Positions 21,438-28,423 of a DNA stretch of 64,000 bases are shown here, one piece after another. The notes under the pieces were generated by a model that saw nothing but the letters and a program-made list of their open reading frames with translations, had not been told where the DNA came from and ran no database searches. Each line of letters opens with the position of its first letter. Within the stretch, counting starts at the first letter, position 1. The position numbers and the translations under genes were made by a program. The stretch is from Pseudomonadota bacterium (lineage in GTDB: Bacteria; Pseudomonadota; Gammaproteobacteria; Pseudomonadales; Oleiphilaceae): contig JBNJDI010000001.1 in NCBI GenBank assembly GCA_051744725.1, positions 11,455 to 75,454 on the forward strand, written 5' to 3'.

Positions 21438-24362
21438 TCAGATCTCGAGAACCTTCATGCCAAGATCCGCCAGCCGCTGCCGGTTACCATGACCGGTCAC
21501 CACGGCCGTGGAGGCACGTTCAGGCGTGAGCCAGCGTTCGGCCGCCCTCTGCATGGAGGCCAGGTCCACCGCCAGTACCCGTTCCCGGAAGCGCTGCTGC
21601 TGCTCGGGCGTGCGCCCGAAAAGCCGGCTCTGATACGCGAATCGGGCTTCGCCCGCGGGTGAACGCGGACGGTCCAGCTGGGAGATCACGCCCAGTATGG
21701 CCTCTTCCACGGAAGCCGCGGTCTGCCCGCCCGCATGCAGCCACGCCAGTGAGCGGTCGAAATCAGCCAGGGTCTCCTCAAGGCGCGGATCGCGATAGGA
21801 GAAGAACCGGAACACCCCGTTGGTGCTGTCCTGCCCCGCGCCGCTGCCGTAGGCACCACCCTGCTCCCGAATGCTGCGGTGCAGGTTGTCATTGCGCAGC
21901 AGCACGCCCAGCACGCTCAGGGGCGCCGCATCCGGGTGCTCCACCGGCACCGTCGGGAAGGCCCGGGCGCAGAAGTTCACCTGGGTGGCGGTCAGCCAGC
22001 CTTCGTTGACCTGCTCACTCACTGGATCCAGATGGAAACCGCCCGCGGCCCGCTCCGCATCCAGGGACCAATGGCCGCGTACCGCGTCCTCGGAGCCTTC
22101 CAGCCCACTGCTCTCACCGATCAGCAGGAAGTCCGGCCCCCCGGCGTGGATCCGTTCATGAAGCTCCGAGAGCCGCTGGCAGAAGCGGTCAAGCTCGGCG
22201 CTGTCGTCCAGACGGTCGTCCAGTGCCACCAGCTGCCGGATGCCCTCAAGCCCGCCCAGCTCATAGGTCAGGCGGGCACCGGGGCTGGCCCCGTGGGAGG
22301 CGGCCCCCATGGCCAGTGCGTGACCACTCCCGGTGATCGAGTGCTCCCGGCGGGCCCGCATCTGGGCCACCAGCTCCCGCACCCGCTCCTTTTCGTCAAA
22401 GCGTGCGGCGGTGGCAACGTCGTGCAGAAGCCCCGCGAGGTCGTCGCTGTTCGCGGCCAGGGCCTTGCCGCCCAGGGTGAAGTAGCCCCGCACGGACTGG
22501 ACGTCGTCAACGTTGCCCTTGATCGTGGCCGCGCCGCTGATGCCGCCGCTGCCCGCCGAGATGCGGTCCTGCATGCGCAGGTAGTCATCGGAACCCGCAC
22601 CCACTTCGCTCAGCATGCTGGAATAGATGGGCAGAAGCTGGCGCTGTTCCGGGGCCAGATCCGGCAGTGGTGCCACCAGCTGCTGGTACACCAGACCGTT
22701 GGTACCCATGTGATAGCGGGTGATGCGCCCGGACCCGTCGCCTTCGCCTTCCGGAATCTTCAGTGACGCCGGCACATCCTCGATGCCGACACGCGGCAGC
22801 ATGCTGTCATCCGCTTCCTGGTTCTGGCGCGCCTGCAGGGCCTGCGCCTGTTCCACCAGGGTATGCGCCTCCTCGCTGGTCAGGCTCGCCTTACGCTCAT
22901 CCAGCGCTTGGCGAACCGCCTGTTCACGGCGCTCATTGAGTCCGGTGTCCGGTGCCAGGGCCAGGCGCACCCGGTGCGGGTTGTCCAACAGCAGGCGCCG
23001 GATCAGCCCGGGCACATACTCCGGATCCCGGATGCGCTCACGCAGTCGTTCCAGTACCGGCTCCAGGTCGAGCAGGTCTACGGGATCACCACCGTGCACC
23101 ATGGGCGAAAGCGCCTGCATGATCAGCTGCAGGCCATAGGGGAACCCATCGCCCGAAATCTCGCGCTGCTGCAGTTCCAGCTGGTGCACGATGGCCTCCA
23201 GCTTCTCATGAGCCACCCCTTCGCGCGCCACCTGTTCCAGGGTTTCGAGAATCAGATTCTCCACCTCACCGGCCTGCTCCGGCTCCGTGCCCTCAATGCC
23301 GCAGACAAAGGTCATTTCGCGGTTGGAGTCCTCGAGCCCGCACAGCGGCGAGGGGGCCTGCCCCAGGCTGGTGGTCTCCAGCGCCTGCAGCAGCGGCGAA
23401 GCGCTGTTTTCCAGCAGCACGGCGGTGAGCAGCTCCGCCTCGAGGTTCTGCTCAAGGTCGAAGCTCTCCCCCAGCAGCCAGCCCATGACCACATGGGTGC
23501 GGTTGTCGGTGCCCTCGTCCGGGTCCACGCCGTAATGCTCCTGGACCCGCACCGGCGCGTAGTAGCGCTTCTCATTGCGCACTGGCAGGTCGATCTCCGC
23601 CGCCGAGAACCGGTTCAGCGCCAGCGACTCGAAGCGCTCCTGGTGCTCGCGCGCCGGGATATCACCGAAGGTGGCGAAGATGGCATTGCTGGGATGATAG
23701 TGGCGGCGATAGAACTGGACCAGCTGATCATAGGTCAGGTCCACGATATGGTCCGGCTCGCCGCCGCTGTTGTAGTGATAGGTGGTGGTCGGAAACAGAT
23801 GCTTCGACAGTGTCTGCCAGAGCTGCGACACCGGCGAACTCATGGCCCCTTTCATCTCGTTGTAGACCACGCCCCGGTGCACCAGCGGCGTACTGGGATC
23901 ATCCGGGGTCTCGAACTCCAGCCGGTGGCCCTCCTGGGCGAAATCCAGTGGATCCAGGTTGGAGAAAAAGACGGAATCCAGATAGACCGAGAGAAGGTTG
24001 TCAAAATCCTTGCGGTTTTTGCTGGCAAACGGATAGGCCGTCCAGTCGCTGCTGGTCAGCGCGTTCATGAAGGTGTTCAGCGAACGCTGGATCATCATGA
24101 AGAAGGGATCGCGCGTGGGGTAGTTCTCGCTGCCGCACAGGGCCGTGTGCTCGAGAATGTGCGCGACCCCGGTGGAATCCATGGGGAAGGTCCGCAGCGC
24201 CACGAGAAAGACATTCTCGTCGTTGTCTGAAGCGAGATGCAGATGGCACGCCCCGGTGGCCCGATGCCGATACTCCTCCACCTCCAGGTGAAGTGTCTCG
24301 ATCCGGTGATTGCGTACCCACTCGAAAGCCGGGTGAACCTGCGGTTCCGCCTGATCCAGCAT
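21438..24362 (-). CDS. Insulinase-family (M16C, PreP-like) zinc metallopeptidase
   Basis: HILEH inverted zincin motif, SLNTFMNALT, GVVYNEMKGA, IREQGGAYG, SYRDP. Confidence 0.92.
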   Translation of the reverse strand: MLDQAEPQVHPAFEWVRNHRIETLHLEVEEYRHRATGACHLHLASDNDENVFLVALRTFPMDSTGVAHILEHTALCGSENYPTRDPFFMMIQRSLNTFMNALTSSDWTAYPFASKNRKDFDNLLSVYLDSVFFSNLDPLDFAQEGHRLEFETPDDPSTPLVHRGVVYNEMKGAMSSPVSQLWQTLSKHLFPTTTYHYNSGGEPDHIVDLTYDQLVQFYRRHYHPSNAIFATFGDIPAREHQERFESLALNRFSAAEIDLPVRNEKRYYAPVRVQEHYGVDPDEGTDNRTHVVMGWLLGESFDLEQNLEAELLTAVLLENSASPLLQALETTSLGQAPSPLCGLEDSNREMTFVCGIEGTEPEQAGEVENLILETLEQVAREGVAHEKLEAIVHQLELQQREISGDGFPYGLQLIMQALSPMVHGGDPVDLLDLEPVLERLRERIRDPEYVPGLIRRLLLDNPHRVRLALAPDTGLNERREQAVRQALDERKASLTSEEAHTLVEQAQALQARQNQEADDSMLPRVGIEDVPASLKIPEGEGDGSGRITRYHMGTNGLVYQQLVAPLPDLAPEQRQLLPIYSSMLSEVGAGSDDYLRMQDRISAGSGGISGAATIKGNVDDVQSVRGYFTLGGKALAANSDDLAGLLHDVATAARFDEKERVRELVAQMRARREHSITGSGHALAMGAASHGASPGARLTYELGGLEGIRQLVALDDRLDDSAELDRFCQRLSELHERIHAGGPDFLLIGESSGLEGSEDAVRGHWSLDAERAAGGFHLDPVSEQVNEGWLTATQVNFCARAFPTVPVEHPDAAPLSVLGVLLRNDNLHRSIREQGGAYGSGAGQDSTNGVFRFFSYRDPRLEETLADFDRSLAWLHAGGQTAASVEEAILGVISQLDRPRSPAGEARFAYQSRLFGRTPEQQQRFRERVLAVDLASMQRAAERWLTPERASTAVVTGHGNRQRLADLGMKVLEI

Positions 24363-24505
24363 GCTCTCTTCCTGTCGTGTGAATGTGCCGCCATTCTAGC
24401 GGTTGCGCGCCGGTGTTCCCACAGCTGTGGCGCAATGCCCTCTGGCAACCGCTCACATCTTGTTTATAGTGTGGGGACACTGGGCAACGTCTGAATGGGC
24501 AATCA

Positions 24506-24970
24506 TTGACCGGCCAACACGAGCATACAGAGACTTCCGGATCCCGCCCCCGCGTTGAGGCCTACTGGGTCGAACGCAAGCGCTACCTGGAGGAGATCCG
24601 CGGCATACCGGAACTGCGGCGGCGATACCTCAAAGCACTGGCGGTCTACCTGCTCCGGCGGACCCTCTGGTCCTTCGGATTCTTTCCCGTGTTCCTGGGG
24701 TTCTGGATTCCACTGGTATTCGCACGCTTCAATCCTGTGGCACTGGTGGACAACGCCCTGCCCCACCTGGAGCGCTTCGTCGACGCAACCGCCCAGGTCC
24801 AGGCCACCACCCTGGAGACACTTGTTCTGTCCTGGCTCTCCGTGGGCCTGCTTTTCGCGGTCTTTGACCTGGTCCTGACCCCCTTCAAGTCGCCCTACGA
24901 GTATGAAGCGGACGTGCACATGCGCGCCTGGGAGGAACTGCAGCAGCGGAGTCGCTCGGAAAACGCCTGA
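24506..24970 (+). CDS. Hypothetical membrane protein (2 TM)
   Basis: 154 aa, two hydrophobic segments, coding-like codon usage, fills intergenic gap. Confidence 0.75.
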   Translation: MTGQHEHTETSGSRPRVEAYWVERKRYLEEIRGIPELRRRYLKALAVYLLRRTLWSFGFFPVFLGFWIPLVFARFNPVALVDNALPHLERFVDATAQVQATTLETLVLSWLSVGLLFAVFDLVLTPFKSPYEYEADVHMRAWEELQQRSRSENA

Positions 24971-25088: not shown

Positions 25089-26369
25089 ATGATCGACTAC
25101 AGACCGCTGCTGTTTGCGAATTTTCTCGCGATCATGCTGCTGGTGACGGCCGGTTTTGCCACCATCCAGCGCTCCCCGGAGCTTGTGGGCTCACGCATTC
25201 CAGTGGTCTCCCCGTCTTCTTCCGGAGAGACTGAAGCCAGCGCGGACGATGAGCGCGCCTCAGCAGAGGCGGCCCAGGCCGATACCGACAGGATTCCCAG
25301 GGTCATTCCAGCCGTCTCCGGCCCCGATACCGGCAGCAGCGCCAAAACCACTGCCGATACCGCCAGCGCCGGAACGGCGGATGACACCCAGCCCGCCACG
25401 TCTAAACAGCAGCCGCAGGAACAGAAGCAGGAGCCAACACAGGCACGGCTGACACTGCGCTCCAACGTGTACGACGACCAGGTGCGGGTCAATGGCGAGC
25501 CCAGGGGCTCCACCGCCATGGACCTGGAACTGGAACCCGGCACCTACACCATCGAGATCAGCAAGCCGAAGCACAGTACCTGGCGGGAGCAGATCCATCT
25601 GGATGCCGGTGATGCCCCCACCCTGATGGCACGCCTTGAACGCTATACCACAGTCCGCTACCGCGACGGCACCTGGGAGCACGGCGTGAAAACCGGCGAA
25701 GGCACCTACCGGGACAGCGACGGCCTCACCTATGAAGGCGAATTCCGCAATGGCGAGTTCCACGGCCAGGGTACGGCCCATTTTCCGGACGGACGCATCT
25801 ACGAAGGCGAGTGGCGGCAGGGCGCCATGCATGGCGAGGGCAGCCTCCAGCGCCCCGGTGGCGATGTCTATGAGGGCGAGTTCCAGGACGGTGAATACCA
25901 TGGCCGTGGCACGCTCACGGCCAGCAACGGCGATACATTCACCGGTCACTGGGAGGACGGCGAACTCAATGGACACGGCACCCTCACAACCGCCGAAGGA
26001 CTCATGTACGTGGGAGATTTCCGGGATGGCCAGCTCCACGGCGAAGGCCGCCTGACCTACCCCGATGGCGGCTATTACCGCGGCGACTTCGCCAACGACC
26101 GTTTCCATGGCGAAGGGGTCCGCACCTTCAGCAGTGGCCGCCAGTACCAGGGCCAGTTTGTCGATGGCCGATTCCACGGCCAGGGCGAGATCCGTCATCC
26201 CAGCGGTGCCAGCATTGAAAGCACATTCCGGGAAGGCGACCCTTACGGCGAGGTCCGCATGACGACACCGGAGGGCGAGGTCTTCACCGCCCGCACTTCG
26301 GAGCCGGGTGTGTGCTATCGCAAGGGCAGCTACCGGGAAACACAGTGTCCCTCCATGGAGGCGTGGTGA
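25089..26369 (+). CDS. PEGA-domain + MORN-repeat exported or membrane-anchored protein
   Basis: N-terminal hydrophobic anchor, S/A/T linker, PEGA-like LRSNV...LELEPGTYTIEISK, YxGxxxxGxxHGxG repeats. Confidence 0.85.
   Translation: MIDYRPLLFANFLAIMLLVTAGFATIQRSPELVGSRIPVVSPSSSGETEASADDERASAEAAQADTDRIPRVIPAVSGPDTGSSAKTTADTASAGTADDTQPATSKQQPQEQKQEPTQARLTLRSNVYDDQVRVNGEPRGSTAMDLELEPGTYTIEISKPKHSTWREQIHLDAGDAPTLMARLERYTTVRYRDGTWEHGVKTGEGTYRDSDGLTYEGEFRNGEFHGQGTAHFPDGRIYEGEWRQGAMHGEGSLQRPGGDVYEGEFQDGEYHGRGTLTASNGDTFTGHWEDGELNGHGTLTTAEGLMYVGDFRDGQLHGEGRLTYPDGGYYRGDFANDRFHGEGVRTFSSGRQYQGQFVDGRFHGQGEIRHPSGASIESTFREGDPYGEVRMTTPEGEVFTARTSEPGVCYRKGSYRETQCPSMEAW
25731..26282 (+). repeat. MORN repeats, 69-nt (23 aa) period, about 8 units plus a degenerate one upstream
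   Basis: YEGEF/YEGEW/YEGEF/FTGHW/YVGDF/YRGDF/YQGQF starting at 25731, 25800, 25869 and so on. Confidence 0.88.
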
Positions 26370-26417
26370 TCCATGTCAGCCGATCCGGTAACAACGCAGT
26401 ACGCAAGAGGAAGTGAG

Positions 26418-27503
26418 ATGACCATCAATACCGCTCTGCTGGTGGACGACTCCAAGGTCGCCCGCTTCGCCCTGAGCAAGCTCCTCGAGAGCCGCAACAT
26501 GGATGTAACCATGGCGGGCTCCGCAGAGGAGGCTCTGGATCTTCTGAACAGCCAGCAGCCGCCGGACGTCATCTTCATGGATCACCTGATGCCGGGCATG
26601 AACGGCGTGGAGGCCACCAAGGCCATCAAGCGCAACCCGGCAACCGCCGCCATCCCGGTGGTCATGTGCACCTCGAAGAAATCGGATGATTTCATCCAGG
26701 AAGCGCAGGGATACGGGGTCTACAACATCCTCACCAAGCCCCCGCAGGCGGATGGGCTCGACAGCATCCTCACGGCGCTGACCCAGGACCTGAACCAGGG
26801 CACACTGCCCGAACCACCGTCTCCCGAGGATGTGGCCGAGGCACCGGATGAATCCGACCCCCTTGAGACCGAGGCCAGTGTGCGCCTGGCAGACAACCGC
26901 CAGAGCGCAGGCGCCGAGGGGGATACCGTACCTCTGACCACTGAGCTGATCGAACAGATCGCGCGCTCGGCGGTGAAGACCCATATCCACAACCGGCTGC
27001 ACGAGCTGCTTTCCAGCCTTTTCGACGAACAGCACGACCATGTCCGCCGCCTGATCGAGGACAGTGAACGCCGGCGGGAAGAGGCCATAGAAAAGCAGAC
27101 CACGGATTTCCGCGAGCTGGTGGAGAGCCGCCTGGAGTCGCTGAAGAATGAAGTGGCCGCCGAAGTCACCCTCAACCTGGGCAATGAGCTCAGCGAACTG
27201 CGCCGGGAGATCCGTGAGCAGACACAGCAGGGACTGACGGAAAGCGACCTGAATGCCCTCAAGGATCACCTGACCGCGGCCCAGACGGTGGATACCGAGT
27301 TCTGGCAGTCCCTGCAGTCCGAAGCCGTCCAGCAGGCCCACGACATCGCCCGGGATACCTCCGAGGAAGTCGCCCAGCGCACCCTGGATCTCTACCGGCG
27401 CGAGCAGAAAACCACGGCAGCGCGGATCTACACCATGGCACTGGCCGTCAGCCTGGGCATCTTCAGTCTCGGCATTGCCTGGCTGGGCGGGCTGATCGGC
27501 TGA
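26418..27503 (+). CDS. Response regulator receiver + coiled coil + C-terminal TM
   Basis: [30 protein letters not shown] intact; helical tail; terminal hydrophobic helix; alternative in-frame ATG at 26373. Confidence 0.88.
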
Positions 27504-27571: not shown

Positions 27572-28423
27572 ATGAACCGTCTTTTCGTTGATAACCTGAC
27601 CGTCATTGACTTTGCCTACCTGGACCGTCACCGCGGCCTGGTCGGCGAAAGCTGGATCGTGGACATCGAACTCGCCGGCGAGCTGAACGAGGCCGGCATG
27701 GTGTTCGACTTCGGCCATGTCAAAAGCACCATCAAGGCGCATATTGACGACCAGGTGGATCACCGGCTGCTGATCCCGGCGGATTATTCCGGGCTGCAGT
27801 GGCTGGACCCGGAGGCGGCGGGGCACTTCCGCTGGCACCTGGCGGACGGCACCTGGATCGAACACCGGTCACCGGACGAGGCGGTTGCCACCGTCCCCGG
27901 CACAGCCGTTGAACGCGAGGCCATCGCCACCCGGCTCTCGCAAAGCCTGCAGCGGATCCTTCCGGACAACGTCCAAAGCGTGCACATCAGCCTGCGCCTG
28001 GAAGCCATAGAGGGCGCCTGGTACCACTATGCCCACGGGCTCAAGAAGCACGACGGCAACTGCCAGCGCATCGCCCACGGCCACCGTTCCCGCATCCGGA
28101 TCCTGCGCAACGGTCAGCGCGCCCCGGATCTGGAGTACTACTGGAGCGAGCGCTGGCGTGACATCTACCTGGCAACAGCCGAAGACCGCACCGGAACCTT
28201 CCAGGATGCGGGCATCACCTATCACCGGTTCAGCTACGATTCGGACCAGGGCCATTTCGAAATCGCCCTGCCAGCGGCCCGCACCGAGATCATGGGGCCG
28301 GATACCACGGTGGAGTGGATTGCCTGCCATCTGCGCGATGAAACCCGCAAGCTGGAGCCGGAAAGCCGGATTGAGGTGTACGCCTTCGAGGGAGTGAACA
28401 AGGGCGCTATCGCGGAGGGCTGA
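27572..28423 (+). CDS. Tandem T-fold 6-carboxy-tetrahydropterin synthase-like (QueD-like) protein
   Basis: GMVFDFGHVK...DHRLL in domain 1; AHGLKKHDGNCQRIAHGH in domain 2. Confidence 0.78.
   Translation: MNRLFVDNLTVIDFAYLDRHRGLVGESWIVDIELAGELNEAGMVFDFGHVKSTIKAHIDDQVDHRLLIPADYSGLQWLDPEAAGHFRWHLADGTWIEHRSPDEAVATVPGTAVEREAIATRLSQSLQRILPDNVQSVHISLRLEAIEGAWYHYAHGLKKHDGNCQRIAHGHRSRIRILRNGQRAPDLEYYWSERWRDIYLATAEDRTGTFQDAGITYHRFSYDSDQGHFEIALPAARTEIMGPDTTVEWIACHLRDETRKLEPESRIEVYAFEGVNKGAIAEG

Follow-up and report, generated by a model that had tools for sequence, protein, structure and literature searches.

What does a receiver domain do when it is anchored in the membrane, carries no output domain and is encoded directly after a PEGA-MORN repeat protein? 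The question is raised by positions 25,089 to 27,503 of a 64,000-nucleotide stretch of a Pseudomonadota genome (GenBank assembly GCA_051744725.1, contig JBNJDI010000001.1, positions 11,455 to 75,454 of the forward strand), referred to below as the window. The DNA belongs to a salt-loving marine bacterium of the Marinobacter family that resembles Salicola: among named homologues, those of Salicola sp. and 'Halomonadaceae bacterium KBTZ08' are the closest, and many Marinobacter sequences come next. The two genes have been inherited and lost together, and very likely work as one functional unit specific to the Marinobacter/Salicola family. With confidence about evenly balanced, we propose that they encode a module particular to this lineage, an orphan receiver tethered to the membrane and coupled, probably across it, to a PEGA-MORN scaffold in the periplasm. 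An earlier sequence-only reading of the window had pointed to an envelope signalling module at this place, and its claims are taken up where the results bear on them.

Two adjacent genes

The pair is composed of the following elements, located with open reading frames (ORFs), Pfam profiles and AlphaFold2 (AF2) models.

25089..26369, + strand: PEGA-MORN gene (gene 1), 426 aa; ORF with Pfam MORN and PEGA matches and an AF2 model
26370..26417, + strand: intergenic spacer, 48 nt, containing the ribosome-binding site GAGGAAG
26418..27503, + strand: receiver gene (gene 2), 361 aa; ORF with a Pfam REC match, start Met shared by homologues

Homologues of each gene recur in database clusters by the hundred, which rules out a chance ORF in either case. 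Gene 1 stops at 26367-26369, and the next ATGs lie at 26373 (3-nt gap) and 26418 (48-nt gap). Both ORFs and both of these candidate starts, between which the sequence-only reading had not chosen, were confirmed. The ATG at 26418 is the better start because GAGGAAG stands ahead of it at 26407-26413 and because the resulting N-terminus matches those of the receiver homologues in the family (356-367 aa, beginning MxIxxALLVDD); the gap is therefore most likely 48 nt. The ATG at 26373, 3 nt past the MORN stop, is in frame and would add 15 residues (26373-26417), and most members of the genus keep this frame open (377-378 aa); a longer, translationally coupled receiver isoform may be made from it. 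No + strand terminator was predicted between gene 1 and gene 2 in a terminator scan, which, with the 48-nt gap and the ribosome-binding site, makes co-transcription of the two genes likely.

Joint inheritance and joint loss

The genomes of 121 members of the family (Salicola, Marinobacter and relatives) were searched with each of the two proteins. Both genes were present in 107, neither in 8, the receiver only in 5 and MORN only in 1. Adjacency was scored from a line-by-line comparison of coordinates: in 106 of the 107 genomes with both genes, drawn from 21 genera, the receiver gene lies downstream on the same strand at a distance of 28-313 nt (mostly 50-60 nt), and in the remaining one the two genes are at the ends of two contigs. 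Two of the five receiver-only genomes end a contig at most 85 nt from the receiver gene, so that MORN cannot be judged there, and the sole MORN-only genome is a fragmented assembly of 580 contigs. Among the well-assembled genomes of the 121, none keeps MORN without the receiver.

Five complete genomes that lack the pair retain the order ppsR, M16 peptidase gene, small gene, [ ], PTPS gene, gltX, where the brackets mark the site of the pair, and in three of the five the small gene and the PTPS gene are 70-87 nt apart. This intact flanking order identifies the absence as a clean excision of exactly two genes. A maximum-likelihood tree of the M16 peptidase puts the pair-less genomes at three or more separate positions: G308 is nested among pair-holders (support 99/97), G255, G297 and G305 form one clade, and G023 stands alone on a deep branch. 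Since the tree covers one gene in 28 rows, the number of loss events that it gives is a minimum and is undated. Three further pair-less genomes belong to another genus.

As far as gene content goes, this distribution shows that the MORN gene depends on the receiver gene, not the reverse, and that the pair is jointly dispensable. The expected co-conservation and synteny thus stood within the Marinobacter family (106 of 107 adjacent, 8 joint absences), but did not extend across Oceanospirillales/Alteromonadales, the pair being confined to one family.

A tail-anchored receiver with no output domain

The features of the receiver protein are listed below; pLDDT is the predicted local distance difference test score of the AF2 model, and TM stands for transmembrane.

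26418..26798, + strand: REC domain, residues 1-127; PF00072
26580-26582, + strand: phospho-acceptor D55
26799..26939, + strand: acidic, Pro-rich disordered linker beginning G-x-LPEPP; pLDDT <50 at residues 137-179
26940..27428, + strand: helical stalk, residues 175-337, from AF2 and conservation
27429..27500, + strand: C-terminal TM tail anchor, from a hydropathy scan; the AF2 helix runs to residue 360

The REC profile (PF00072) matches residues 22-130 of the 376-aa frame with an E-value of 5.5e-24, scoring 84.9 bits where the cut-off is 30.2, and the domain is modelled as a (beta-alpha)5 fold at a pLDDT of ~80. Residues D10, D11, D55, T85 and K107 (numbered from 26418), together with P108, are invariant in 50 homologues, and because the first five are kept the receiver should be phosphorylatable. 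After REC, linker residues G128, L130, P131, E132 and P134 are conserved, and the stalk holds two strongly conserved blocks (~172-208 and 282-325); AF2 places its helices at 175-249, 254-268, 275-290 and 294-360 with moderate or low confidence. By hydropathy the protein has one hydrophobic segment and no other, in the last 24 residues and followed by one residue, which in silico is the single, extreme C-terminal TM helix of a tail-anchored membrane protein. Half of these positions (12 of the last 24) are constrained: Y338, S345, F349 and G352 never vary, and another 8 reach at least 90% conservation. We infer that the receiver is cytoplasmic and tail-anchored in the inner membrane by its last 23 residues.

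Outside REC, the receiver protein gave no Pfam or NCBIfam match, neither to a DNA-binding or enzymatic output domain nor to any other family. Residues 170-361 (linker end, stalk and anchor) returned coiled-coil noise only in a sequence search of the PDB, and with phmmer just 25 cluster representatives among 1.84 billion proteins, which marks the conserved stalk as a family-level speciality. PF26406, listed for three receiver homologues, did not appear in the Pfam copy used.

A kinase was likewise not seen nearby. HATPase_c has no match on the contig of the window (C1, 79,642 bp), the 32 matches of the genome all being on other contigs, and no histidine kinase was seen at the orthologous loci inspected. 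With no adjacent histidine kinase and no recognisable output domain, the locus does not form a classical two-component system. The phosphorylatable receiver with a C-terminal TM helix, and the lack of a kinase or DNA-binding domain near it, both read earlier from the letters alone, were borne out by these results. The genome holds 13 Hpt matches, and its HptB and HsbR-like pair is on contig C44.

A PEGA-MORN protein that probably faces the periplasm

The PEGA-MORN protein is divided as follows.

25101..25160, + strand: N-terminal TM helix, residues ~5-24, MIDYRPLLFANFLAIMLLVTAGFA; AF2 helix 5-21
25158..25427, + strand: disordered spacer rich in Pro, Ala, Glu and Thr, residues 24-113; pLDDT <50
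25443..25643, + strand: PEGA beta-sandwich, residues 119-185; Pfam PF08308; AF2 strands 119-181, pLDDT >90
25653..26264, + strand: array of ~9 MORN beta-hairpin repeats of ~23 aa each, of the YxGxWxxGxxxGxG type, residues 189-392
26280..26366, + strand: conserved C-terminal cap ARTxEPGVCYRxxSYRxTQCP...W with a Cys pair
26313-26315, + strand: C409, an invariant cap column
26346-26348, + strand: C420, an invariant cap column

The AF2 model (mean pLDDT 79.7, built with a 50-sequence alignment) comprises the TM helix at 5-21, disorder at 24-113, a beta-sandwich at 119-181, beta-hairpins at 189-392 (pLDDT >90) and the C-terminal cap. PEGA is assigned from a predicted beta-sandwich and from a profile match above threshold (PF08308, residues 120-185, 67 of 71 profile positions covered, E-value 2e-11, 44.1 bits for a cut-off of 20.8), and the MORN repeats from the hairpins and a profile match above the curated cut-off (PF02493, E-value 4.4e-45). 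The best Foldseek matches are MORN1 of Toxoplasma, Trypanosoma and Plasmodium (6t69, 6t68, 6t4d) and junctophilins, with E-values of ~1e-18, TM-scores on the target of 0.81-0.86 and 35-39% identity; the PDB MORN matches listed by Foldseek are all eukaryotic, and MORN4/Myo3a is among the closest solved structures. LysM, OmpA-like, TonB C-terminal or other peptidoglycan- or receptor-binding domains were not detected in a Pfam scan of the protein. The N-terminal anchor, PEGA domain, roughly nine MORN repeats and C-terminal Cys pair of the sequence-only reading were thus recovered.

Orthologues are 45-88% identical to the window protein. Conservation is concentrated at the N-terminus, where all but 5 of the first 24 positions (19) reach at least 90%, while column identity averages 51% over the whole protein, and D3, P6, N11 and G22 of the TM region are invariant; a polar Asn inside a TM helix drives helix association. 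Each of the 119 full-length orthologues has two Cys and no more, separated by 11 residues and with the second one 7 positions from the C-terminus, and there are no other metal ligands close to them; from this pattern C409 and C420 probably form a disulfide. Across the same 119 proteins the spacer measures 79-158 aa (P 17%, A 16%, E 11%, T 11%). Extended spacers of this composition are typical of envelope-spanning proteins, and this one probably spans the periplasm.

The fixed Cys pair and the spacer, together with the net charge flanking the TM helix (0 on the N side, -1.1 on the C side), the relation of PEGA to surface-layer proteins given in its Pfam family description, and the N-termini of other MORN proteins in the order (8 of 8 sampled start with a hydrophobic signal-like segment or a lipobox), place the PEGA-MORN part in the periplasm with good confidence. 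The orientation suggested at the outset thereby gained indirect support from the 119 Cys pairs, the spacer and the eight signal-like starts.

The receiver stalk in lineages without MORN

In three lineages (G245, G307 and G309) the receiver is kept at the syntenic site, directly after the small gene, and no trace of MORN was found there by tblastn. The divergence of the receiver was compared with that of the neighbouring M16 peptidase, with the following amino acid identities; stalk plus TM refers to the last 190 residues.

Pair-holders within Marinobacter: M16 83-92%; REC 83-95%; stalk plus TM 80-95%
Window genome versus Marinobacter pair-holders: M16 65-67%; REC 71-73%; stalk plus TM 59-61%
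MORN-less lineages versus Marinobacter pair-holders: M16 73-77%; REC 64-73%; stalk plus TM 30% (G307), 51% (G309) and 54-55% (G245)

Measured against M16, the receiver segment that links REC to the membrane appears strongly constrained only while the PEGA-MORN gene is present.

Receivers of the same subtype in other families

The REC domain belongs to a distinctive subtype found across the order (ALxVDDSKxARFxLxKLL ... PDxIFMDHxMPGMDG ... IPxxMCTSK) in proteins of 283-449 aa, with named examples from Ketobacter, strain HdN1, Alkalimarinus and uncultured Pseudomonadales that are annotated merely as 'response regulator'. Of 20 such proteins inspected, 17 carry a TM helix at their C-terminal end (15 of the 18 that come from outside the Marinobacter family). 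What lies between REC and anchor in the other families is helical, poorly conserved and variable in length. No MORN gene adjoins a receiver homologue outside the Marinobacter family, the nearest being 21-60 kb away, and the neighbours there vary, one family having a 214-aa bitopic protein after zipA-ligA.

Several of these loci show further arrangements. A two-TM DUF4112 protein is encoded upstream of the tail-anchored receiver in Ketobacter alkanivorans (L035, 5400-7942) and at L028, L031 and L033, and L035 has two tandem tail-anchored receivers of 338 and 290 aa. In gamma proteobacterium HdN1 (L033, 2671-6445) the receiver homologue stands beside genes for STAS, REC-PP2C-kinase-like and stand-alone Hpt proteins, a set resembling HsbA/HsbR/HptB. 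In two other families (L025, 6017-8738; L038, 3553-6696) a membrane HAMP class III adenylate/guanylate cyclase is encoded directly downstream on the same strand, and may be a different partner of the same receiver type. A cyclase link was rejected for the genome of the window: its one class III cyclase, which we take to be CyaB-like with a polytopic N-terminus, is unlinked to the pair, and its N-terminal half has no match to the HAMP-cyclases.

Proposed mechanism

According to the proposed coupling, the PEGA-MORN protein would be anchored by its first 24 residues and extended into the periplasm by the flexible spacer of ~90 aa, its disulfide-stapled sheet reaching possibly to peptidoglycan or the outer membrane. 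The two conserved TM helices and their juxtamembrane residues would pack together and hold the complex in the membrane, since both helices are far more conserved than an anchor needs and than the rest of the proteins. The stalk would carry conformational information between the membrane and REC, while D55 would be phosphorylated by a kinase or Hpt protein encoded elsewhere, its state linked to the state or position of the periplasmic scaffold. As the receiver exists without MORN in other lineages, it would be the primary element, an output-less REC acting by protein contacts, and the PEGA-MORN protein a lineage-specific accessory, useless without the receiver. Information might flow outside-in, with MORN as a non-kinase co-sensor, or inside-out, with the receiver controlling the scaffold.

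Several results weigh against this coupling. The receiver survives without MORN in the three lineages and has different neighbours in other families, so its core job does not need MORN. Once MORN is lost, the whole cytoplasmic stalk, not just the TM helix, loses conservation, although under the proposed topology the MORN protein could reach the receiver only through the TM helices and its own N-tail of 5 residues; the faster stalk divergence is also known from three lineages only, and their REC domains diverge somewhat faster too. The positive-inside signal at the MORN anchor is weak, with one Arg on each side, and the AF2 model of the receiver is of low confidence (pLDDT 63, predicted TM-score 0.37). 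The comparison of co-loss yielded no kinase candidate from HptB, whose phosphorelay branch (HptB-HsbR-HsbA type) might supply the phosphate, and the CHASE2 kinase: HptB is retained in all five complete pair-less genomes, as a multi-target kinase would be anyway, and the CHASE2 kinase has a full-length match in two of the five and a partial match in three.

Alternative explanations

Both soluble parts might instead be cytoplasmic, the MORN protein crossing the membrane N-out/C-in and its sheet binding the long helices of the receiver directly, in the way that eukaryotic MORN arrays clamp alpha-helices, as a phosphorylation-switched, membrane-attached scaffold. This would account for the loss of conservation along the entire stalk, beyond the TM helix, where MORN is missing; eukaryotic MORN proteins are cytosolic, the MORN sheets of junctophilin and of MORN4/Myo3a, which are among the closest structures, bind long helices, and the charges flanking the anchor are almost symmetric. 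We nevertheless judge it unlikely, given the disulfide signature of a Cys pair kept at a fixed spacing in every orthologue with no metal ligands nearby, the kinship of PEGA with surface-layer proteins, the extended Pro/Ala/Glu/Thr-rich spacer, the more negative net charge on the C side of the TM helix and the signal-like N-termini of the eight sampled MORN proteins of the order.

An equally improbable account, in our estimate, is that the receiver is a tethered phosphate sink or modulator of membrane kinases and the PEGA-MORN protein an unrelated structural operon-mate, their co-loss being the deletion of one segment. A receiver without an output domain would suit such a role, the same REC subtype is tail-anchored without MORN at 15 or more other loci with variable, poorly conserved stalks, and neighbouring genes are easily deleted together. 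A one-segment deletion, however, predicts no asymmetry, whereas MORN is kept alone in no well-assembled genome and MORN-only deletion occurred in three lineages; moreover, strong conservation of the stalk is confined to genomes with MORN, and 106 genomes from 21 genera preserve the gene order, the strand and the short spacer.

Least probable of all, and pure conjecture, is a polar landmark module, the example offered in the sequence-only reading, in which periplasmic MORN-PEGA would attach to some envelope feature specific to the pole and so bring the receiver and its phospho-signalling there. Receiver plus coiled-coil proteins such as Myxococcus FrzS are polar, the layout of anchor, spacer and scaffold resembles the polar organisers FimV and HubP, and the receiver gene follows zipA-ligA in one other family. 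Against it, the sequence data are silent on localisation, the Marinobacter family loci show no linkage of the pair to genes for motility, pili or division, and no LysM or OmpA-like peptidoglycan-binding domain was detected.

Trans-membrane coupling of receiver and scaffold thus remains our preferred reading. A bolder version, which we hold only tentatively and think doubtful as a whole, is that phospho-Asp signalling is here coupled across the inner membrane in a new way, by helix-helix contact between a tail-anchored receiver and a non-catalytic, single-pass MORN scaffold. Cytoplasmic phosphorylation would remodel or move a scaffold that spans the envelope (inside-out), or a cue from the envelope would gate the receiver with no sensor kinase in between (outside-in), and tail-anchored receivers with membrane partners of their own (DUF4112, the 214-aa bitopic protein, HAMP-cyclases) would form a general, so far undescribed class of modular adaptors in marine Gammaproteobacteria.

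Neighbouring genes and other MORN proteins

The pair is flanked by the following genes.

21438-24362, - strand: M16 peptidase gene, divergent
24506-24970, + strand: small 2-TM protein gene, 154 aa as listed
27572-28423, + strand: PTPS/QueD-like gene, 283 aa

The small 2-TM protein is 49-63% identical across the family, is kept in pair-less genomes and has no match in Pfam, NCBIfam or PADLOC; a promoter-like site (CTGGCA-17-TATAGT) lies ahead of its gene at 24442-24470. It was rejected as a third component, being present in all five complete pair-less genomes. The PTPS/QueD-like gene begins 68 nt past the receiver gene with no terminator predicted in between, and is syntenic in every family genome checked, pair-less ones included; in some Marinobacter a MobA-like gene is inserted ahead of it on the opposite strand. 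Its 283-aa product is about twice the usual length of QueD, and two stretches match PF01242 below the equivalog cut-offs. Further downstream, tRNA-Glu, tRNA-Ala and gltX lie on the - strand. A role in anti-phage defence was rejected because a PADLOC scan gave no match.

Among the eight other MORN proteins sampled from the order, four carry an exported-type peptidase C13 domain. Exported proteins of ~550-615 aa from several families (L075-L077 and L081) combine a MORN array with a C-terminal, legumain-like peptidase C13, an architecture for which no discussion was found in the literature retrieved.

Comparison with known systems

The domain types of the pair are all known; what is new is how they are put together, which proteins are partnered and the comparative case for coupling. 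Few signalling switches are as well studied as receiver domains, and bacterial MORN and PEGA proteins have almost no assigned functions. No description of a tail-anchored, output-less receiver with a dedicated periplasmic partner was found, nor any characterised tail-anchored receiver or functional study of a PEGA-MORN protein, in a literature search that did not cover subscription journals. If the proposed coupling is true, a bacterial MORN array would gain a first functional context, two-component signalling would have an example of a link to the envelope in which the complex includes no sensor kinase, and modular tail-anchored receivers would be defined as a family in ecologically important hydrocarbon degraders of the sea (Marinobacter, Ketobacter, HdN1); if the pair is merely a tethered phosphate sink and a passenger gene, the gain would be a modest improvement of annotation. 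The module is present in laboratory strains of Marinobacter that are genetically tractable, so that each step of the model is directly testable.

Single-domain and output-less regulators of the CheY, DivK, CpdR and PilH type are likewise orphans with a full D-D-D-T-K REC and no output, but the receiver described here has ~230 more residues (linker, stalk and TM anchor) and a genetically coupled periplasmic partner. FrzS of Myxococcus xanthus also joins an N-terminal receiver to a long helical or coiled-coil scaffold region. It is soluble, and its receiver is a non-phosphorylatable pseudo-receiver, whereas the phospho-acceptor set is intact here and a membrane anchor is present; no sequence relation beyond REC was detected. 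Proteins of the TonB and FimV/HubP type resemble the PEGA-MORN protein in their N-terminal signal-anchor, long Pro/Ala/Glu/Thr-rich segment and folded C-terminal module, which here consists of PEGA and MORN rather than a TonB C-terminal domain or LysM.

Eukaryotic MORN1 and the junctophilins share the repeat fold, and junctophilins likewise unite a MORN sheet, one membrane anchor and a long spacer, a design that lends itself to bridging two layers. The PEGA-MORN protein differs from them in being bacterial, anchored at the N-terminus instead of the tail and probably extracytoplasmic, with PEGA ahead of the array and a Cys-pair cap behind it. LapD-LapG and the non-kinase accessory sensors offer an analogy only: there, too, a cytoplasmic signalling domain is coupled via membrane helices to a non-catalytic periplasmic protein-binding module. 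There is no homology, and LapD is one polypeptide that reads c-di-GMP, whereas the module proposed here would consist of two single-pass proteins and a phospho-Asp switch.

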